From the UHGV virus genome UHGV-1790783: a stretch of DNA of 30,347 nucleotides; one strand, given 5' to 3'. Positions 1,928 to 10,672 of this stretch are shown in pieces. Under the pieces are notes generated by a model that worked only from the letters and a program-made list of their open reading frames with translations, did not search any database and was not told the DNA's origin. Position 1 is the stretch's first letter, and each line of letters starts with the position of its first letter. Source of the stretch: a virus. Both the position numbers and the translations under genes were made by a program.

Positions 1928-3487
1928 TTACTCTCTATTTAAAACAGTGAAATCGAATGTGCTGCCAACCGGCAAGACCCCCTCGGCAAACCCAGGCGTC
2001 GTGTCGATAATGTGTTTCCGCTCATATGAATGCGACATGAGGTATTTGTTGCTCACGTCGATGAAGTCGGTAATAAAGCACACGTTAGCCTGATTCTTTT
2101 TGGCTCGAAGACCGCGGCCCACACGTTGACGCATCTCCACTTCGGCTTTGCCGCCACCACCCAGAATCACAGCGCCTACGCTTGGAACGTCGACACCAAC
2201 ATCCAGAATGGTTGAACCAATGAGAACATCTATCTTGCCTACCGCCAGACTATTAAGTTTTGCTTGTCGGGTAGTCTGGTTTGATTCTCCGTAGATGAAA
2301 TCGACCTTGAGGCCACTCTCTTTCATCATTTCCATCAAGATCTGACCATGACGCTTCAGACGAACCAATGTCATACAGTTCAGACCGTGACTTTTGTACA
2401 TTAACGCTTCGCGCACAATAGCCTCGTTGCGGCCCAGATTGTAAACGATGCCTAACTGATAGGCTTTCTGGTAAGCCGTACTCATTCCAACCCGAAAGTT
2501 CAGGTGTTTCGAAGCAAGTTCGGCCCTAATCCGCACCTCGTCTGGAGTGTACGCGATTTTATGATATAGAAAGTAGGGTTTCGCTAAAATACCTCGGTCG
2601 ATCAAATATTTCTCCGTTACTTTTATCTCGATGCGACCCGCAACGGCCATGAGACGCATATTTGCTTCAGTCGAGTCCTTCATGAACGGCGTTGCTGTCA
2701 GCGCCAGACGGTAGTCGGCATTGATGCACAACCGGGCGATGTCGTAGAAGTTAGAACCAGATGATTCGTGTGCCTCTTCCAGAATCAGCAGAGAAACGCT
2801 GGACAGGAAGCGTTTAACCAGTTCCCGGCGCTTCAGGTGGTACTGTTTTTTCTCCGGTGATGCGTCGCGCGGTGGCTCTTCGAGAAAACTGGCCAGGGTC
2901 TGCACCGTGGCAACGTTGATATGGCGCGAGACCTGGAACTCACCCGATCCAATCACCCCAACTCTCTGACCTTTCAGCCACGGCTCGCCATTCTCCGCGC
3001 GGTAGTCGATGGATTTCTGGAAGTTCTCTGCCATCTGGAACATCAGAACCGATCGCGTGGTTAAAAACAGCGTCATACGACCAATGCGAGCAGCAGCCTT
3101 ACACGCTACGTTCGATTTACCGCCACCCGTCGCAATCTGGGCAATCATCATCCCTTCGCGCACCAGTGTTTCCACTGTCTGATCCTGATACGCATAGTCC
3201 GGGTTATACGGGAATGGGTTAACTACCGGGTTCGGCTTGCCCAGCGCGGGGGCTTTTTCCTTGCGCACATGCACGCATTTGATGCCAGCTTTCAGAAGGT
3301 TGGCTGCAACTGGCTTCGCAAACCCAGCCGGGAACGCGTTTTTGCTCCAGTTGAACATCGTGCTGGTTCCTTTCCAGTCCCCAGCCTCCACTTCATAGCT
3401 CAACATCTCCTGAACGAGCCGCTTCACGTTGTCATCAGCGCCAGAAATCAGCGCATTGACTGCATTCGATACAATCCGAACTGTCAT
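1928..3487 (-). CDS. Superfamily-2 DNA/RNA helicase (DEAH-type, ResIII-like phage replication helicase)
   Basis: ORF track 519 aa. Motif I ATGGGKS, motif II LILEEAH, motif III LALTATP, C-terminal motif VI QRVGRGLR. Strong SD (AAGGAAAGAGG) upstream of the ATG at 3487. Confidence 0.9.
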   Translation of the reverse strand: MTVRIVSNAVNALISGADDNVKRLVQEMLSYEVEAGDWKGTSTMFNWSKNAFPAGFAKPVAANLLKAGIKCVHVRKEKAPALGKPNPVVNPFPYNPDYAYQDQTVETLVREGMMIAQIATGGGKSNVACKAAARIGRMTLFLTTRSVLMFQMAENFQKSIDYRAENGEPWLKGQRVGVIGSGEFQVSRHINVATVQTLASFLEEPPRDASPEKKQYHLKRRELVKRFLSSVSLLILEEAHESSGSNFYDIARLCINADYRLALTATPFMKDSTEANMRLMAVAGRIEIKVTEKYLIDRGILAKPYFLYHKIAYTPDEVRIRAELASKHLNFRVGMSTAYQKAYQLGIVYNLGRNEAIVREALMYKSHGLNCMTLVRLKRHGQILMEMMKESGLKVDFIYGESNQTTRQAKLNSLAVGKIDVLIGSTILDVGVDVPSVGAVILGGGGKAEVEMRQRVGRGLRAKKNQANVCFITDFIDVSNKYLMSHSYERKHIIDTTPGFAEGVLPVGSTFDFTVLNRE

Positions 3488-3569
3488 AAACCTCTTTCCT
3501 TCGTGCCTTTTGTATGGTAATTGGCTATTATAGTAAGTAAGTACTTATACAATAGATTGTATCAGAATT
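3488..3569. promoter_or_regulatory. Divergent intergenic control region between helicase (leftward) and ParB-like operon (rightward)
   Basis: 82-bp gap between divergently oriented genes. Contains TAGTAAGTAAGTACTTATAC (3531..3550) with the perfect 10-bp palindrome TAAGTACTTA, and a perfect TATAAT on the minus strand (plus 3527..3532) suitably placed for the helicase. -35 elements are weak. Confidence 0.5.
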
Positions 3570-4250
3570 ATGGATGTGAAAATTACGATTCTGCAGGTGG
3601 AAGTCGCGAACCTGCGTCCGAATCCCTGGAATACCAACTCCGTTGGGGCGCAAAACTTCGAAAAACTGAAAGGCTCTATCGAAAAATTGGGCTTTTTTAA
3701 GCCAATTCTGGCGCGGGAGTTGGACGGGGGCATTTTTGAGATCCTCGGTGGTGAACACCGCTGGCGTGCCGCGATGGAGCAGGGCATTTCAACGGTTCCC
3801 GTCATCTCCGTGGGCAAAATTAACGACCTGGTGGCCAAACAGATGTCCCTCGTCGACAACGAGCGCTACGGCGAAGACGATCAGGTCGCTTTGCAGCGCT
3901 TAATCGAAGAAATCCAGTCTGAAATCGACTACCGGTTGTCCGATATCGCCCCGTATGACGACGAAATGGCGGCAACACTCGCCAAAGCGTCCGTTATCGA
4001 TCTTGAAGCGCTGGAAGCGCTCTCCCGTGGCGATGACGAGCCGGTCGATGAGGACAAACGCGAGAAAACCGAGCGAGTCGGCGCTGAACACCAGACGATG
4101 CGCTTCAAGGTGACGTTTGATGCGTCAGATCGGGTCGCCGACACCATCAAAACCATCATCAAAGAGCAGGGAATCAATACCGGTAACGAAATGGAGAACG
4201 CCGGGGAAGCCCTGGTGTGGCTGGTCGACTACTACAAGGAGCGTATGTAA
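3570..4250 (+). CDS. ParB/sulfiredoxin-like nuclease-domain protein (paralogue 1)
   Basis: ORF track 226 aa. ParB N-terminal motif ILGGEHRWRAA preceded by LRPNPWN. Stop overlaps the next start (TAATG). Confidence 0.8.
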   Translation: MDVKITILQVEVANLRPNPWNTNSVGAQNFEKLKGSIEKLGFFKPILARELDGGIFEILGGEHRWRAAMEQGISTVPVISVGKINDLVAKQMSLVDNERYGEDDQVALQRLIEEIQSEIDYRLSDIAPYDDEMAATLAKASVIDLEALEALSRGDDEPVDEDKREKTERVGAEHQTMRFKVTFDASDRVADTIKTIIKEQGINTGNEMENAGEALVWLVDYYKERM

Positions 4251-4918
4251 TGACCAAAAACTTTGAAATCGTCTATCGAAACCCGGCAGAACTCATCCCG
4301 TATGAGATGAACGCCAAAAAACATGACGAACAGCAGATCCGCGATCTGGCGGCCGCCATCAAAAAGCGCGGTTTTGACCAGCCGATCACGGTCGACAAGC
4401 ACGACGTCATCATTACTGGCCACGGTCGTCGCGAGGCGGCTCTTCTGGCTGGTCTGGAGCGTGTGCCGGTCATTGTTCGCGACGATCTGAGCGAAGAAGA
4501 AGTGAAGGCTAAGCGTCTGGAAGACAACCGCCTGGCCAGTATTGACTACGACGCCATCAAATTGCAGCAGGAACTGGAATCCCTGGTGCTGGGCGACGTC
4601 GAGGTCTTCGGTTTTGAAGAGCGCGAGCTGAACGTGCTTGTCGGCAGCATGACCGAAGAGATGGAAACCGGCTCTCTGGTGCTCGATCTGGGCGAAGAGA
4701 CGGAGCGCCAGAAGGAAGAGCACACCGAGATCAGTCGCGAAGTGGCCTCTGAAGAAGTCCGCGTCATCGACGTATTGGGCTTTAAAACGCTCCCTGCTGG
4801 CTCTGCCATTGTGGTTGGGGATTTGCTTGCCCACATGGAAGAAATCACGGGAGAGAGCGGGGTAGACGCTTTCGTGGCGTATGCGGAGAAAGTTTCTTCT
4901 GGGGAGCTGGCCGCATGA
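4250..4918 (+). CDS. ParB/sulfiredoxin-like nuclease-domain protein (paralogue 2) with acidic C-terminal half
   Basis: In-frame ATG at 4250 inside track ORF 4217..4918. ParB-type motif IITGHGRREAA. Stop overlaps the next gene's ATG (ATGA). Confidence 0.8.
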   Translation: MTKNFEIVYRNPAELIPYEMNAKKHDEQQIRDLAAAIKKRGFDQPITVDKHDVIITGHGRREAALLAGLERVPVIVRDDLSEEEVKAKRLEDNRLASIDYDAIKLQQELESLVLGDVEVFGFEERELNVLVGSMTEEMETGSLVLDLGEETERQKEEHTEISREVASEEVRVIDVLGFKTLPAGSAIVVGDLLAHMEEITGESGVDAFVAYAEKVSSGELAA

Positions 4919-5553
4919 GCAAATACACCATCAACGTATCGTTTCAGACCCGCGTGAACAAAACCACGCGCACGCTGGAGATTGCCGAATCGTTCGGTCT
5001 TGGCCTGGACGAAAAAGAGTGGACGCTTTACGACAATCTGGAGCTGGAAGTGAAGCAGGGCGATGTGGTGTACATCACCGGCCAATCCGGTTCCGGTAAA
5101 TCCGTTGTGCTGCGCGAGCTGCAACGCCAGATGAAGGATGAAGGGCTTTCTGTAGCCTCCATCGATGACTTTGCCTTCGACAATGAGGTTAACGTCATTG
5201 ACCAGCTGGGCAAAACCACCAGCGAAGCGCTGGGGCTGCTGTCTATGGCCGGATTGAATGACGCCTATCTCTTTGTGCGTAAGCCATCCGAGATGTCTGA
5301 CGGCCAGAAATACCGTCTCAAGATCGCCAAGCTGATCGAGTCCGGCGCGAAAGTCTGGGCTGCCGACGAATTTGGCGCTGTTCTCGACCGTGTAACCGCC
5401 CAGGTTGTGGCGTCGAACCTCCAGCGTGCCGCCCGTAAGGTTGGTGCGACGGTAATGGTGGCGACGACCCACGAAGACCTGAAGAACGCGCTGCGCCCGG
5501 ATATGCAGATCACCAAGCACTACAAAGAACGCGTGAAGGTGGAATATGCCTGA
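4915..5553 (+). CDS. Stand-alone ABC-type ATPase (single nucleotide-binding domain)
   Basis: ORF track 212 aa. Walker A GQSGSGKS, Q-loop-like IDQLG, ABC signature-like SDGQKYR, Walker B VWAADEFG, H-loop-like ATTHED. No transmembrane partner in the operon. Confidence 0.75.
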   Translation: MSKYTINVSFQTRVNKTTRTLEIAESFGLGLDEKEWTLYDNLELEVKQGDVVYITGQSGSGKSVVLRELQRQMKDEGLSVASIDDFAFDNEVNVIDQLGKTTSEALGLLSMAGLNDAYLFVRKPSEMSDGQKYRLKIAKLIESGAKVWAADEFGAVLDRVTAQVVASNLQRAARKVGATVMVATTHEDLKNALRPDMQITKHYKERVKVEYA

Positions 5554-5800
5554 TTTGAAGATCGTAGAGCTGAAGCCATCGAAAGAGACTGACAACAACA
5601 ACGTTGAAGTCATCCGCCTGCTGGAAGAAGCACTCCAGTACGCAAGAGAAGGCAAAAGTCAGAGCCTGGCTCTGCTGATGATCGACAACGACGGCAATGT
5701 TATGGATTGCTGGCATAACGGTGGGCGTCCATACGTCATGGTTGGGGCGATGGAATCGCTTCGCCTGGACTTCATCAATGCCAATATCGAGCGTAGGTGA
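5546..5800 (+). CDS. Small hypothetical protein (84 aa)
   Basis: ORF track 84 aa, ATG overlaps the ATPase stop by 8 nt; no recognisable motif. Supported mainly by operon context. Confidence 0.45.
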   Translation: MPDLKIVELKPSKETDNNNVEVIRLLEEALQYAREGKSQSLALLMIDNDGNVMDCWHNGGRPYVMVGAMESLRLDFINANIERR

Positions 5801-5805
5801 TCGAC

Positions 5806-6696
5806 ATGACAGGCATCATCATCAAACGCTACCGCCCGGAAGAGTTCCCGCGTCATCTGGACTTTCTGGAGCGTATGACCGTTACCAAAGGCACGGTTGA
5901 AGACTGGCACGCGCTGAAGTCGCTGCACTACAAGACGGATGGTAAGCCGTTCGCGCCAACGTATTATCGCTGCGAACTGGACGACCGGCTGGTGGGCGTC
6001 GTGGTTATGGCTTACCCGAAACTGCTGCTGGCGCCTCGCCATCGCATGTTTCCTAAGCTGAAGCCAACCACCAATACCACCGTGGCCAACCAGTATTGGG
6101 GCCGGTACGTGAACAACAACTTTGCCGTGATCAGCCGTTCCGTTGTTGACACTCAGTACCGCGGTGTCGGCGTCTCCTATCGAATGATTAACCTGGTTAG
6201 CAGGATGCACGACCGGCCAATCATCGAGATCCAGTCGTCGATGAGCAAATACAACCCGTTCGCCATGAAAGCAGGGTTCCAGTTCATCCGTCCGGAGCGT
6301 CCGAAGAGCTATGAGAGTGCGTTGCGCGTCTTCCAGCGTCATTTCCGTTCTGACCCTGGCGACAACGAAGCGATCGTCAAAGAGCTGTTCGCCATGAGTG
6401 AGTCTCGCCGTCGTCGTGCGCTGCGTGATCTGGTCGCTGACTACCACAAGAACAGTTCCCTGGCCAAAGCCGGGCGTAATCGTGGCACGACGATTCAGGA
6501 CATTGCCGACAGCCTGGTGGACGAGGCCAGCACCGTGAAGCTGCTCAAGGACATTCACAACCTGAGCTTCACGTCTCCGCTGTATGGCGTGTACCGAAAC
6601 CCGGACTTTGGTCGTCAGCTGCCGGACACGCTGCCACTGCTGGCATTCGACAAACAGCCTTTGAATAAACCTCTTGAAATTGCATTACCGGCATAA
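5806..6696 (+). CDS. GNAT-like acyltransferase-fold protein with ~130-aa C-terminal extension
   Basis: ATG at 5806 (AGGTGA SD 8 nt upstream) within track ORF 5797..6696. Segment FAVISRSVVDTQYRGVGVSYRMINLV matches GNAT motif A (R/Q-x-x-G-x-G/A after a hydrophobic strand). Motif-level inference only. Confidence 0.55.
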   Translation: MTGIIIKRYRPEEFPRHLDFLERMTVTKGTVEDWHALKSLHYKTDGKPFAPTYYRCELDDRLVGVVVMAYPKLLLAPRHRMFPKLKPTTNTTVANQYWGRYVNNNFAVISRSVVDTQYRGVGVSYRMINLVSRMHDRPIIEIQSSMSKYNPFAMKAGFQFIRPERPKSYESALRVFQRHFRSDPGDNEAIVKELFAMSESRRRRALRDLVADYHKNSSLAKAGRNRGTTIQDIADSLVDEASTVKLLKDIHNLSFTSPLYGVYRNPDFGRQLPDTLPLLAFDKQPLNKPLEIALPA

Positions 6697-6705
6697 GGAT
6701 TTGCC

Positions 6706-6972
6706 ATGACGTTGACCGACAAACAAAAAGACATCATCAAAACCATCAATTTAGGCCATGAGCGTGGGCATCTGCTCGATCTGGACGAGCTGCTTGAAGT
6801 GCTGCCGTACAAAACGACCAAACAGAGTATGCAGTTCTCTATCCGCGCACTGGTGAAAAAGGGGCTGGTGGAGAAAGGAATGTGCCGCCAGCGCGGTGAT
6901 TCCGGCTACCACCGTCGCACGCTGGGACTGACCACGTTAGGTCGTGCCAGAGCCAAATTACTGGTGATGTAA
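6706..6972 (+). CDS. Small basic protein, putative winged-helix DNA-binding regulator
   Basis: ORF track 88 aa, SD TAAGGA upstream. Lys/Arg-rich with a helix-turn-helix-like segment (TTKQSMQFSIRALVKKGLVEK). Low-specificity inference. Confidence 0.45.
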   Translation: MTLTDKQKDIIKTINLGHERGHLLDLDELLEVLPYKTTKQSMQFSIRALVKKGLVEKGMCRQRGDSGYHRRTLGLTTLGRARAKLLVM

Positions 6973-6997
6973 GTCGGTCTGGGAGCCAGTTTGAGAG

Positions 6998-7048
6998 CCT
7001 GCTTCCGTATATATAAATAGTGACTTATTAAATATATACGGAGGCAGG
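6998..7048. repeat. Large imperfect inverted repeat (17-bp arms, 17-nt AT-rich loop) between the accessory operon and terS
   Basis: Seen in sequence: CCTGCTTCCGTATATAT ... ATATATACGGAGGCAGG, one mismatch that is a G-U pair in RNA. No adjacent T-tract, so not a classic terminator. Confidence 0.7.
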
Positions 7049-7163
7049 TTCTGAATACTCCCCAGCCCGGTTTTAAACACCCAGAAAACAAATTGGTTAG
7101 GCACTGAATTAAACAAGTTGTTTAGGAGCGCAAGGATGCGCTCTGAGTGTTTTAGAGGGATCT

Positions 7164-7805
7164 ATGACTGTAGAAAAAGACGAGAGCAAAACTCGCCTGA
7201 CACCAGCTGAGTGGGCAGAAGCCGAAGCGAAGTGGACTTCCGGCGAATACACACTCTCCAGGCTGGAGGAAGAGTACGGCATTCGTCGTGAAACGCTCTC
7301 CAGACATTTCAAAAAGCGTGGATTAGAGAAAGGCGCGGACTCCGTTGGGAAGATGGTGCGCGAGTCGCTCAAATCCGACGCAGAGCTGCGTGCGAAGGCG
7401 CGTGCAGAGAAAATCGAAGAGCGCCGGACTCGTTACGACGATTGGGCGTTCGCACTCGGTCGTATGGTGATGCATGAGGTGGCCACAGCCAAGAAGGACG
7501 GCAGGCCACTGGCAGCCATCGAAGATGACCTGAAGAGTCTCCAGCGTGCCAGCGGCACACTCGCTAAGTGCTTCGAAATATCGTCGAAAGCGCTCGGTAT
7601 GGATCGCGTGGAGAACGAGGACGACGAAATCCCGAACCTGGTATTTGGCGAACTTACGCCTTCCCAGGTGGCGCAGCTGCGTAAGGAAGATGATGAGCCG
7701 GATCTGATTGATGACGATCTGCTTGAGTCACTCGAAGAGGAAGCACTGAGCGAAGCTGAGGGCGATTCTGAAGCGTCTGGTGATGAAAGTGATGGGAGCG
7801 TCTGA
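7164..7805 (+). CDS. terS: Terminase small subunit (putative)
   Basis: ORF track 213 aa, immediately upstream of and coupled to the large terminase; HTH-like N-terminus, highly acidic C-terminus; SD AGAGGGA. Call by position and composition. Confidence 0.65.
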   Translation: MTVEKDESKTRLTPAEWAEAEAKWTSGEYTLSRLEEEYGIRRETLSRHFKKRGLEKGADSVGKMVRESLKSDAELRAKARAEKIEERRTRYDDWAFALGRMVMHEVATAKKDGRPLAAIEDDLKSLQRASGTLAKCFEISSKALGMDRVENEDDEIPNLVFGELTPSQVAQLRKEDDEPDLIDDDLLESLEEEALSEAEGDSEASGDESDGSV

Positions 7806-7807
7806 CT

Positions 7808-9064
7808 ATGGCCATCCCGTCGTCTCTGAGTCTCGTACAGCTGCATTCTGGGCAGATGCAAGTCTTCCAGTCGCCACATCGTTTCAAAGTGGTGTGTGCG
7901 GGTCGACGCTGGGGTAAATCCCGGTTGTCGATCTCCACCATCATCCGCGCGGCAGCCAAAGAGAAGAAGCAACGTGTCTGGTACGTCGCACCGACTTACC
8001 AGATGGCTCGCCAGATCTTGTGGGATGACCTGCAGGAAGTTCTGCCGCGCAAATGGGTTCGTAAGAAAAACGACACCACGATGACCATCGTGCTGAAGAA
8101 CGGCTCTGAAATCGCGCTGAAAGGTGCGGATAAGCCCGATACGCTTCGTGGTGTGGCACTGCACTTTGTGGTGCTCGATGAATTTCAGGATATGAAGCCT
8201 GACACCTGGTACAAGGTACTGCGTCCGACACTGTCCTCCACCCGTGGCGGTGCGCTGATCATCGGTACGCCAAAAGGCTTCTCCGAGTTCCACAAGCTGT
8301 GGACTATCGGTCAGAACAAAGATTTGCAACGCAAGGGGCAGTGGAAGAGCTGGCAGTTCGTTACGGCCGATTCTCCGTTCGTACCGAGCGCGGAAATCGA
8401 AGCAGCGAAGAACGATATGGACCCTAAATCGTTCGCACAGGAATACCTGGCCAGCTTCGAAAACATGTCCGGACGCGTTTACTACCCGTTCGACCGCAAT
8501 GTGCATGTGAAGCCACTCCAGTTCAATCCGAAACTGCCGATCTGGGTTGGTCAGGACTTCAACATCGACCCTATGTCATCGGTCATCCTGCAGCCGCAGC
8601 CAAATGGCGAGTTGTGGGCCGTGGACGAGGTTGTGCTGTTCTCTTCCAACACGGCTGAAGTGTGTGATGAGCTGGAGCGCCGTTTCTGGCGCTGGAAGTC
8701 TCAGGTCACTATCTTCCCTGACCCGGCAGGTGCGTATCGCCAGCACGCACGCGGCGAATCGGACGTCGATATCTTCAAGGAAAAAGGTTTCCTTCGAGTC
8801 GATTATCCGAAGAAGCACCCGCCGATCGCAGACCGTGTTAACGCAGTGAACCGCATGTTGATGAGTGCCTCGGGCGAAACCCGGTTGTACATCGATCCGA
8901 AGTGCAAACACCTCATCGACTCGCTGGAGAAGGTGATCTACAAGCCAGGCTCACGCGATATGGATAAGACTGGCGGCATCGAACACAGTGCGGATGCGTT
9001 GGGTTATCCGGTTCATCGTAGGTATCCGGTTAAAAATCGTGTTATTCTTGGTGGATCTAGATAG
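7808..9064 (+). CDS. terL: Terminase large subunit (ATPase + nuclease)
   Basis: ORF track 418 aa. Walker A VVCAGRRWGKS, Walker B HFVVLDEF, C-terminal acidic nuclease-type segment VGQDFNIDP. Confidence 0.9.
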   Translation: MAIPSSLSLVQLHSGQMQVFQSPHRFKVVCAGRRWGKSRLSISTIIRAAAKEKKQRVWYVAPTYQMARQILWDDLQEVLPRKWVRKKNDTTMTIVLKNGSEIALKGADKPDTLRGVALHFVVLDEFQDMKPDTWYKVLRPTLSSTRGGALIIGTPKGFSEFHKLWTIGQNKDLQRKGQWKSWQFVTADSPFVPSAEIEAAKNDMDPKSFAQEYLASFENMSGRVYYPFDRNVHVKPLQFNPKLPIWVGQDFNIDPMSSVILQPQPNGELWAVDEVVLFSSNTAEVCDELERRFWRWKSQVTIFPDPAGAYRQHARGESDVDIFKEKGFLRVDYPKKHPPIADRVNAVNRMLMSASGETRLYIDPKCKHLIDSLEKVIYKPGSRDMDKTGGIEHSADALGYPVHRRYPVKNRVILGGSR

Positions 9065-9078
9065 GTAAGTGCTTACCT
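9063..9078 (+). promoter_or_regulatory. Short palindrome/hairpin AGGTAAG-TG-CTTACCT in the terL-portal spacer (variant of the recurring TAAGTA motif)
   Basis: Seen in sequence; overlaps the terL stop codon and precedes the portal SD. Function unknown. Confidence 0.35.
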
Positions 9079-9097
9079 AAGCGGAAAGGAAAATCAA

Positions 9098-10672
9098 ATG
9101 GAATTGACTGACAAGCAAATCAAAGACCTTGTGGCACGACGCCACCCTGAATATGAGAAGAAAAAAGAACATTGGGACTTCCTCGCCAGCACCTACGCTG
9201 GCGGGCGTGCCTGGTTCAACGACAATATCTTCCGTTACTTCAAAGAGGGCGATCAGGAGTTCAAAGAGCGCCTGGAACGCGCTTATCGCTTCAACCATAC
9301 GCGCGAAGTGGTAAACCTCATCAACAAATACCTCTTCAAAGAGGTCATTCACCGCAACACTGATGAAGCACCGGAGCAGATCCGCAATTTCTGGAAGCGA
9401 GCCACGCGCCAGAACGCCTCCATCGATGCGTTTATGGCGGCTATCGATCTGCAATCATCCATTTATGGCCGTATCTGGGTTGTCGTGGATAGCACGATGA
9501 ACGTCGATGTTGAGTCTGTTGCAGACGAGAAGAAAAATGATGCGCGTGCCTACGCTTACTGGATTTCGCCGCAGCAGCTGCTTGATGTTGCCTGGGATGA
9601 AGACGGCAATATGTTGTGGGCGCTGATTGTTGAAATCGCGCGCGACGACGAAGATCCGTTCACTTCAACCGGGCAGGAATACCAGCGTTACCGTCTGTGG
9701 ACGCAAAACGAGTGGTATCTGTTCCGTGAAGAAGTGAAGAAGGGTTCCGGAAATAGCGGTCGCCGTCAGGCCAAAGTCGTTCTGGAGGATAGCGGCCAGC
9801 ATAATCTGGGCGTGGTGCCGGTGTTCCCGGTGGATTGCATTGGTGAAAGCGAGTCTCCGTATTTTAGCCCGTCGTTGATTGACGATATTGCCTATCTTGA
9901 TCGCGCCGTGGCCAACTACCTGTCGAACCTTGACGCGATTATTCAGGATCAGACATTCAGCCAGTTAGCGATTCCGGTTCAGTCCCTGCTGCCGGGCGAT
10001 GAAAACCACACCAAAGTGCTCGAAATGGGGACAAAACGTGTCTTCACCTTCGATTCTGAGAGCGGTAATCAGCCATTCTATCTGTCTCCAGACCCGAAAC
10101 AGGCTCAGATGATCATCACCACGATTAAGACGGTGATTAATGAGATCTACCATTCCGTTGGTGTGGCTGGTGAGCGAACCAAGCAGGATAACGCGCAGGG
10201 TATCGACAACTCTTCGGGGGCAGCGAAGATGTACGACTTCCAACGTATTAACAGTCTGCTGGTGACAAAAGCAGAGCGCCTCGAAAGGGCAGAACGCCAA
10301 ATGATGGAGTTGGCTGCGAAATGGATGGGCATCGAATTGGATGAAGACCACTCTCTGATCGCTTACCCGGAGAGTTTCGATATTCGTGGTCTGACTGACG
10401 AATTTGCCGTCGCTGAGAAATTGTCGCTGTTACAGGCGCCTGATTCTGTACGTCGTCATCAGATGGAAATGCTCATAGAAAAGATCTTCCCGAATATTTC
10501 CGAAGCGATGCAAAAGGAATTTAAAAAAGATCTCTTGAAATTTCCTCTAAAAAATGCTCCTGGCGCCCTTGAAAATAAGTCAGTACTTACTTATGATCGA
10601 GATACAGTCCAAGAAAGCGGACGAGATCAACCCCGAGGGAATGGGGACTCATCTACTCAAGAGACCGAGTGA
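9098..10672 (+). CDS. Portal protein (putative)
   Basis: ORF track 524 aa, directly after terL and before the scaffold/capsid genes; SD AAAGGA. Assigned by size and conserved gene order. Confidence 0.75.
   Translation: MELTDKQIKDLVARRHPEYEKKKEHWDFLASTYAGGRAWFNDNIFRYFKEGDQEFKERLERAYRFNHTREVVNLINKYLFKEVIHRNTDEAPEQIRNFWKRATRQNASIDAFMAAIDLQSSIYGRIWVVVDSTMNVDVESVADEKKNDARAYAYWISPQQLLDVAWDEDGNMLWALIVEIARDDEDPFTSTGQEYQRYRLWTQNEWYLFREEVKKGSGNSGRRQAKVVLEDSGQHNLGVVPVFPVDCIGESESPYFSPSLIDDIAYLDRAVANYLSNLDAIIQDQTFSQLAIPVQSLLPGDENHTKVLEMGTKRVFTFDSESGNQPFYLSPDPKQAQMIITTIKTVINEIYHSVGVAGERTKQDNAQGIDNSSGAAKMYDFQRINSLLVTKAERLERAERQMMELAAKWMGIELDEDHSLIAYPESFDIRGLTDEFAVAEKLSLLQAPDSVRRHQMEMLIEKIFPNISEAMQKEFKKDLLKFPLKNAPGALENKSVLTYDRDTVQESGRDQPRGNGDSSTQETE

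Follow-up and report, generated by a model that had tools for sequence, protein, structure and literature searches.

This report concerns a stretch of 30,347 nucleotides of viral DNA (UHGV virus genome UHGV-1790783), hereafter called the window, and in particular its gene at positions 5806-6696, which encodes a GNAT-like protein and lies in a cassette of ParB, ABC ATPase and GNAT genes. Over positions 3500-7200, the window shares 98.4% identity with Salmonella phage SSU5 and 83-86% with the SSU5-like phage-plasmids of E. coli and Klebsiella. A helicase gene on the minus strand is followed on the plus strand by ParB1, ParB2, the ABC ATPase, an open reading frame (ORF) of 84 amino acids and the GNAT gene, tightly packed or overlapping; 3' of the GNAT gene come an ORF of 88 amino acids, a TerS-like gene, the large terminase gene and the portal gene. 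The two genes at the centre of the analysis are the following:

4915 to 5553, plus strand: ABC-type ATPase, 212 amino acids, the cognate, detached N-terminal domain of the GNAT protein (Pfam ABC_tran, E 4.9e-13).
5806 to 6696, plus strand: GNAT-like acyltransferase gene, 296 amino acids, PHROG 886, the predicted catalytic half of an ABC ATPase-GNAT protein that is split into two genes.

The GNAT ORF (5797/5806-6696) is clearly coding. An AGGTGA Shine-Dalgarno sequence stands 7 nucleotides 5' of the ATG at 5806, and the public homologues (e.g. P0001) share the Met start at that position. An earlier interpretation made without database searches (the sequence-only reading) was confirmed as to the ORF, which lies on the plus strand, and as to its upstream neighbours, two ParB_N genes (3570-4250 and 4250-4918) and the ABC-type ATPase gene. 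The antisense ORF 5659-6558 (299 amino acids) is a shadow of the GNAT gene. The encoded protein matches phrog_886 at E 8e-164 and has 320 homologues in a 90%-clustered protein collection, with identities down to ~42%; 985 matches emerged when 1.84 billion cluster representatives were searched with the family profile. NCBIfam and PADLOC contain no family for this protein, and searching the PDB sequences, both with the protein itself and with its family profile, yielded chance matches only (AlkD, E ~1; a myosin chimera).

The profile search connects the GNAT gene to the ATPase gene. Of the 148 best representatives listed beyond the homologues already collected, 69 join an ABC domain at the N-terminus to a GNAT domain at the C-terminus; they were found at E values of 1e-15 to 1e-28 through their C-terminal halves, as confirmed with phmmer, and their N-terminal halves match the 4915-5553 ATPase (phmmer E down to 1e-62). 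From these sequence comparisons, we take the ATPase to be the GNAT protein's own missing half, and the GNAT gene to be one half of a split protein. The sequence-only reading, which had relied on the adjacent ParB-like and ATPase genes to suggest an activity directed at nucleic acids, pointed in the right direction but missed that the ATPase gene encodes the detached domain of the same protein. The two genes directly abut in phage Cyrano. The Walker A (G56-S63), signature (MSDGQ, 127-131), Walker B (VWAADE, 147-152), D-loop and H-loop (H186) motifs of the ATPase are all intact, and its sequence resembles generic transporter nucleotide-binding domains; a scan of genome contigs gave ~12 genuine matches, the remainder being generic ABC ATPases.

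Close homologues of the window region 3570-9064 also include in-frame ParB1::GNAT, ABC::GNAT and GNAT::TerL joins (P0027, P0030 and P0003). We rejected them as informative fusions, as they are deletion chimeras of SSU5-like elements; some resident phage-plasmids are hence decaying across the cassette.

Fold and conserved residues of the GNAT protein

The following parts were delimited in the protein encoded by 5806-6696:

5860 to 6300, plus strand: GNAT core, residues 19-165 (beta1 to the short alpha4/beta6), from predicted secondary structure, invariant columns and charge.
6016 to 6120, plus strand: family-specific insert between beta3 and beta4, residues 71-105 (PKLLL..RH..FPKLKP), with model helices H76-81 and H92-105.
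6160 to 6177, plus strand: GNAT motif A, the acyl-coenzyme A (CoA) pyrophosphate-binding loop R119-G-V-G122-V-S124, from conservation.
6310 to 6570, plus strand: helical insert (residues 169-255) made of five to six helices, specific to the family and without a recognised fold.
6580 to 6636, plus strand: terminal strands, residues 259-277, with the SPLYGVYRNPD motif, probably the last strands of the GNAT sheet.

The structural model indicates that 5806-6696 encodes a real GNAT-fold protein with a predicted acyltransferase activity. The sequence-only reading had staked its assignment on GNAT topology and on the presence of an acyl-CoA-binding loop, and both were looked for and found. The predicted model has the order beta1-alpha1-alpha2-beta2-beta3-beta4-alpha3-beta5-alpha4-beta6-beta7, and a motif A of the form Q/R-x-x-G-x-G/A stands between beta4 and alpha3, within the string VVDTQYRGVGVSYRMINLV (residues 112-130) that this reading had singled out. 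In this loop, R119 and G122 are invariant (70/70), and position 124 is S, A or G in 35, 24 and 11 cases, respectively; the fused relatives read RGIGLG, and those of Streptococcus and Gordonia phages read QGVGLG or QGAGIG. Other invariant residues are W34, H41-Y42-K43, R111, D115, E141 and S144 in the core, and R78, P83 and N95 in the beta3-beta4 insert. The CoA loop and the polar residues H41, Y42, K43, R111, D115, E141 and S144 persist across 42-100% identity, as expected from an active site.

When scanned alone against Pfam, the protein gave no significant match (Acetyltransf_10, E 0.068, 13.6 bits vs a cutoff of 23.6). Homologues linked to it by hidden Markov model (HMM) searches did: P335 Orf25 scores 31.1 against the 20.7 cutoff of a Pfam GNAT model, P0209 exceeds the curated cutoff of Acetyltransf_1, and 18 of 31 fused forms match Acetyltransf_7 at E <= 0.01.

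The last third of the protein turned out to differ from the long basic C-terminal extension described by the sequence-only reading. It is not a simple tail: in the full-length model the helices (169-255) are followed by strands at 259-264 and 275-277, whereas in residues 162-296 modelled alone the helices still fold and the strands turn to coil. As the strands form only in the full-length model, we propose that the GNAT sheet is completed by strands from the SPLYGVYRNPD segment, before which the helices are inserted. Within this segment Y260, G261, N265 and P266 are invariant, and in the fused forms one Tyr (Y472 in A3) stays invariant within a C-terminal 'Y..W.NP' segment. Nor is this part particularly basic, its net charge being +2 (residues 169-296; family medians of ~0 over 169-258 and -1.5 over 259-296). 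Strong basicity is found instead in the GNAT core, whose net charge of +13 (family medians of +10 and +12) is comparable to the +17.5 of Mom, which binds DNA and tRNA.

Partner and neighbouring genes across phages

The genes surrounding the ATPase-GNAT pair in the window are the following:

1928 to 3487, minus strand: divergent UvsW/DEAD-type helicase (Pfam DEAD/ResIII/Helicase_C), syntenic in distant prophages.
3570 to 4250, plus strand: ParB/Srx N-terminal-domain protein 1 (ParB1), PHROG 723, with a GGEHRWRA box (ParB_N, E 8.7e-14; phrog_723, E 2.1e-85).
4250 to 4918, plus strand: ParB/Srx N-terminal-domain protein 2 (ParB2), PHROG 930/620 (ParB_N, E 9.3e-9; phrog_620, E 2.1e-39).
5546 to 5800, plus strand: optional gene of 84 amino acids, PHROG 796, between the ATPase and GNAT genes (39/80 SSU5-like loci).
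6706 to 6972, plus strand: conserved gene of 88 amino acids, PHROG 900, directly 3' of the GNAT gene (79/80 SSU5-like loci).
7164 to 9064, plus strand: TerS-like DNA-binding protein (7164-7805) and large terminase (7808-9064), directly 3' of the cassette (phrog_867, E 1.6e-106).

The ParB partners may connect the cassette to DNA modification. ParB2 also matches phrog_498 (E 2.3e-32) and the PADLOC model MTase_II (E 6.5e-18), and it belongs to the ParB type and the PHROG neighbourhood in which ParB is also fused to DNA methyltransferases (PHROG 498). In four representative proteins (P0194, P0215, P0221 and P0230), a ParB/Srx N-terminal domain and a zinc ribbon precede the ABC-GNAT part in one polypeptide. 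The ParB of these triple fusions is related to the cassette-linked ParBs (hhalign probability 97.5%, E 6.7e-12), and PHROG 620, which matches both ParBs of the window, also matches P0194 and P0221 at E ~1e-16. Phage ParB homologues activate post-replicative DNA-modifying enzymes (PMC13229309). Similarly to the present cassette, the 5mYOX T-dioxygenase/ParB and DpdA/DpdB systems and the ParB-methyltransferase fusions (PHROG 498) place ParB beside, or fuse it to, such an enzyme; their catalytic partner is a dioxygenase, a transglycosylase or a methyltransferase, whereas here it is a GNAT protein with an ABC ATPase.

DNA polymerase is another natural partner. P0203 (L006-L008, 8001-11783) is a fusion of a family B DNA polymerase (PolB), an ABC domain and a GNAT domain, 1260 amino acids long, encoded inside a replication module; in the assembly collection, this PolB-ABC-GNAT fusion appears in 35 indexed blocks (of which 24 contigs were read) and represents one phage lineage. 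In L117 (4354-7998), a PolB gene bearing an intein/LAGLIDADG element ends where the ABC-GNAT gene starts, and another fused ABC-GNAT gene lies within an SPbeta-like replication module. The natural fusions with the ABC ATPase, ParB and family B DNA polymerase support the nucleic-acid context put forward by the sequence-only reading far better than the mere vicinity of such genes would, and specify it as DNA.

Unrelated phages repeatedly show the order ParB - ABC - GNAT - small gene(s) - TerS/TerL. The cassette stands beside terminase genes in the SSU5-like elements, in Dyella and Ectothiorhodospira prophages (~45% identity), in Streptococcus phiNIH1.1 and MismyG, in Lactococcus P335, in Leptospira LE3 and in Gordonia Axumite, thereby spanning phages of Proteobacteria, Firmicutes, Actinobacteria and Spirochaetes. 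In the Dyella and Ectothiorhodospira prophages, the 7808-9064 protein is matched by a Terminase_6N gene in the syntenic position (phmmer). Among 80 viral contigs carrying a fused ABC-GNAT gene, TerL is immediately upstream in ~60. The nearest genomic relatives of the fused-form contigs are contigs of Bathyarchaeia/Nitrososphaeria metagenome-assembled genomes, which suggests that they belong to archaeal viruses. In the IMG/VR set of 80 contigs (L093-L172), the contig end coincides exactly with the fused gene's stop codon in 21 cases; we rejected the idea of a genome terminus at this point, the most likely cause being an artefact of provirus trimming at gene boundaries.

The 84-amino-acid gene (PHROG 796) is absent in phage Cyrano and replaced by an ORF of 183 amino acids in Klebsiella phage ST13-OXA48phi12.3, and the Ectothiorhodospira prophage has three other genes in the ATPase/GNAT gap, including Phage_gp49_66 and RyR-domain genes. 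This gene is probably outside the core module, and the split site behaves as an insertion hotspot. The 88-amino-acid gene (PHROG 900) is matched in the Ectothiorhodospira prophage, and in Dyella the same position is occupied by an ORF of ~93 amino acids without detectable similarity. Its product shows faint matches of the helix-turn-helix/winged-helix type only; it is possibly a small winged helix-turn-helix protein, and the gene may contribute to packaging or belong to the module as an additional component.

In the Streptococcus phages phiNIH1.1 and MismyG, an ASCH gene follows ParB-ABC-GNAT (L173, 5472-5849; L179, 4458-4826). ASCH proteins are amidohydrolases that hydrolyse N4-acylcytosines (PMC6972931), and their presence as neighbours is a hint of N4-acyl-cytosine chemistry. 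In Gordonia phage Axumite and in a Porphyromonas phage, a Formyl_trans_N gene lies directly 3' of the fused ABC-GNAT gene (L174, 1805-2452; L178, 4385-4858), the Axumite gene being annotated as 'tRNA-methyltransferase'; since these two phages are unrelated, the pairing looks recurrent. The accessory genes vary by lineage, and all are of the base or amine chemistry type.

Several peculiarities of individual relatives were also recorded. The GNAT part of phiNIH1.1 looks frameshifted or decayed. P0178 carries an intein inside the ABC domain itself, and P0155 (L091, 166-2163) is a fused ABC-GNAT protein with a C-terminal match to a TFIIB repeat, a transcription-factor domain of the archaeal/eukaryotic type. 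The N-terminal ~430 amino acids of the long fusions P0189, P0205 and P0228 were considered as a PD-(D/E)xK nuclease, a possibility that a PDB profile search did not support; the sole outcome with PHROGs was a DnaA-like P-loop match for P0205.

Predicted chemistry and alternative explanations

That phage proteins combining an ABC ATPase with a GNAT domain act on DNA was reportedly predicted by Iyer, Zhang, Burroughs and Aravind in 2013. The prediction that this family acylates DNA bases, which had escaped the sequence-only reading, was restated by Aravind's group in 2021 (PMC7824862). The 5806-6696 gene is a split, ParB-duplicated member of this known family (COG2401 'MK0520'; PHROGs 886, 293 and 11143): its HMM finds the fused proteins, and the HY motif, the beta4 Arg, the CoA loop and the beta5 Glu are common to them and to 5806-6696. 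For Tenacibaculum phage pT24, a cited example of the family, which was found with a fused query, only the ATPase segment aligned. The fused forms are single genes, whereas here the protein is divided between two genes, which an additional gene sometimes separates, and two ParB genes stand 5'; moreover, the 87-residue helical insert is present here and lacking in the short forms.

We propose, with about even confidence, that the ParB-ABC ATPase-GNAT module performs an ATP-driven, ParB-assisted and acyl-CoA-dependent acylation of phage DNA. The GNAT fold, the conserved CoA loop, the pairing with the ATPase, the fusions to ParB and DNA polymerase and the conserved place beside the terminase genes are shown by the present analysis; that DNA is the substrate and acyl-CoA the donor, what ATP and ParB do, and what the module is for are our inferences, as follows. 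ATP-dependent dimerisation is common to all ABC nucleotide-binding domains, and the ABC ATPase would dimerise on ATP, thereby bringing or clamping the basic GNAT domains onto the phage DNA, while the ParB/Srx proteins would serve to load the enzyme on double-stranded DNA, to target it there or to activate it. The GNAT domain would then move the acyl group from acyl-CoA to the exocyclic amine of a DNA base, the N4 of cytosine being the most specific guess, after replication and before packaging, and the acylated DNA would be protected from host nucleases. The ASCH and formyltransferase genes may provide reader, eraser or tailoring steps in some phages. The narrower proposal that the cassette is an acyl-CoA 'writer' of an N-acylated base (e.g. 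N4-acyl-deoxycytidine) in double-stranded DNA, i.e. a DNA counterpart of TmcA/NAT10, is more tentative, and we consider it possible rather than probable; if true, it would amount to a new chemical class of phage DNA hypermodification, and the enzyme would be the first characterised DNA N-acyltransferase using acyl-CoA.

Several points weigh against DNA acylation. The Tyr of alpha4, which is the general acid in many GNATs, is an Ala here (A153), and the structural basis of the assignment is a predicted model. ParB is absent in many lineages, e.g. in all 80 fused viral loci, and the junction between replication and packaging genes is a general hotspot for accessory genes, so that position alone is weak evidence. 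As ASCH proteins also act on N4-acetylcytidine (ac4C) in tRNA, an RNA target fits the ASCH neighbour equally well. In the literature searched, we found no experiment on any family member and no report of a cassette-bearing phage with acylated DNA; N-acyl bases are labile, an instability that is documented at N6-adenine (PMC13219725).

The alternatives differ in the target and the donor that they assume. The GNAT protein might acetylate a host or phage protein involved in the nucleoid, defence, replication or packaging, or the RNA polymerase, as with the phiKMV Rac GNAT, the ATPase then serving as a regulator or an adaptor. This seems rather unlikely, since a protein target hardly explains the fusions to ParB, a DNA-clamping/loading domain, or the neighbouring ASCH and formyltransferase genes for base or amine modification, and since a single host target is improbable for a family whose phages have widely differing hosts, among them bacteria and probably archaea. 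Another alternative is an RNA or tRNA N-acyltransferase, which could, for instance, shield or readjust tRNAs in the infected cell. Its functional analogue would be TmcA/NAT10, also the closest analogue of the cassette in logic, namely a nucleoside triphosphatase with a GNAT domain that acylates a nucleobase in a polynucleotide with acetyl-CoA (textbook knowledge). The basic GNAT core, the formyltransferase neighbour, reminiscent of Met-tRNA formyltransferase, and the ASCH neighbour in Streptococcus phages would all suit such an enzyme, knowing that ASCH proteins hydrolyse N4-acetylcytidine (PMC6972931) and were recently proposed as tRNA ac4C erasers (bioRxiv 10.64898/2026.02.27.708502). We nevertheless regard it as unlikely: TmcA combines a helicase-type ATPase with DUF1726 and tRNA-binding domains, whereas the present ATPase is a minimal domain of the ABC type; no TmcA-type Pfam domain was matched in the 5806-6696 protein, its ATPase or 31 fused relatives; and the recurrent partners (ParB, PolB, terminase and helicase) are DNA proteins. 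A purely non-enzymatic role, with ParB and ABC-GNAT forming a DNA clamp or recognition factor for packaging or replication and the GNAT fold acting as a binding domain, would account for the strikingly constant place beside terS/terL in unrelated phages, in both gene orders, and recalls the ABC ATPases SMC, Rad50 and RecF, which clamp DNA (textbook knowledge). It is very unlikely, given that the invariance of the CoA loop and polar residues is typical of an active site and that most phages with this terminase type lack the cassette, which is hence not a core packaging component. There is next to no chance that 5806-6696 is the ATP-binding subunit of an ABC transporter, as it is named in GenBank and PHROGs. 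The GenBank name comes from COG2401 ('MK0520, ABC-type ATPase fused to a predicted acetyltransferase domain'), a label that is right for the family and wrong on the GNAT gene once shortened to 'ABC transporter ATP-binding protein'; apart from such database names nothing favours this reading, which is refuted by the domain content of the protein. Its 296 amino acids contain no P-loop or ABC match, the true ATPase is the separate gene 4915-5553, no permease was noted among the ORFs of 3000-10000, and neither a permease nor a substrate-binding gene was noted among the nearby ORFs.

The remaining alternative keeps DNA as the target and changes the donor: as in phage Mu Mom, which uses Gly-tRNA and not acyl-CoA (PMC13219725), the acyl or aminoacyl group would come from a charged tRNA. 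Mom, which the sequence-only reading had invoked as the precedent for DNA modification by an acyltransferase fold, appears to be a fold-level analogue only. Both proteins have the GNAT fold, are very basic and carry an insert before the last strand, and Mom acts on DNA. A Mom protein is the best match of our model among viral models (E 7e-5), and Mom is one of its best structural matches overall, where its rank is high but not distinct from that of other GNATs. The W34...H41-Y42 stretch before beta2, R111 in beta4 and Q143-S144 in beta5 are comparable in place to the functionally important W48, H58, Y59 and R111 and the conserved Q145-S146 of Mom (gene compared at L009, 1378-2103); these residues are colinear, in an alignment that is not significant (E 0.036). 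A formyltransferase neighbour could, in addition, cap a free alpha-amine.

Against this donor, no match to the Mom Pfam family PF25680 was found at E <= 1. Membership of the Mom family was also tried with hhalign against a profile of 48 Mom sequences, in local, global and trimmed-core modes, and rejected, as all the results were insignificant (probability 0.7%; trimmed cores, probability 1.4%, E 0.036). Within that non-significant alignment, no counterpart was established for D149 and R151 of the Mom catalytic set (H58/Y59, R111, S124, D149 and R151). The canonical CoA loop RxxGxG/A/S is kept across the family, whereas Mom has lost it; the Mom stretch reads R120-N-S-E-S124, with the motif glycine replaced, as judged by position and not by alignment. 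Furthermore, Mom works alone, without an ATPase or ParB partner, and its insert between beta6 and beta7 is a helix-turn-helix-like element of ~35 residues (PMC13219725), as compared with the bundle of 87 residues found here. Chemistry of the Mom type is therefore distinctly unlikely; since Mom uses Gly-tRNA, it provides no precedent for an acyl-CoA-dependent modification of DNA.

Significance of the cassette

To a comparative genomicist our finding will come as no surprise and is of moderate interest, yet the family is widespread, and the practical consequence is that the propagated 'ABC transporter' annotation of the 5806-6696 gene is wrong. Direct tests are possible, since E. coli K-12 is infected by a phage with a family member (PhiR41_1), keeping in mind that the predicted modification is labile and could disappear when DNA is prepared and sequenced by standard means. 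If acyl-CoA-dependent acylation of phage DNA were true, it would offer an enzymatic route to acylated DNA. The cassette would then represent a new class of DNA modification, in which the N-acylation of bases from acyl-CoA requires both ATP and ParB, in SSU5-like phage-plasmids that are common in clinical Salmonella, E. coli and Klebsiella, and it would bear on the escape of these elements from restriction and other DNA-sensing defences.

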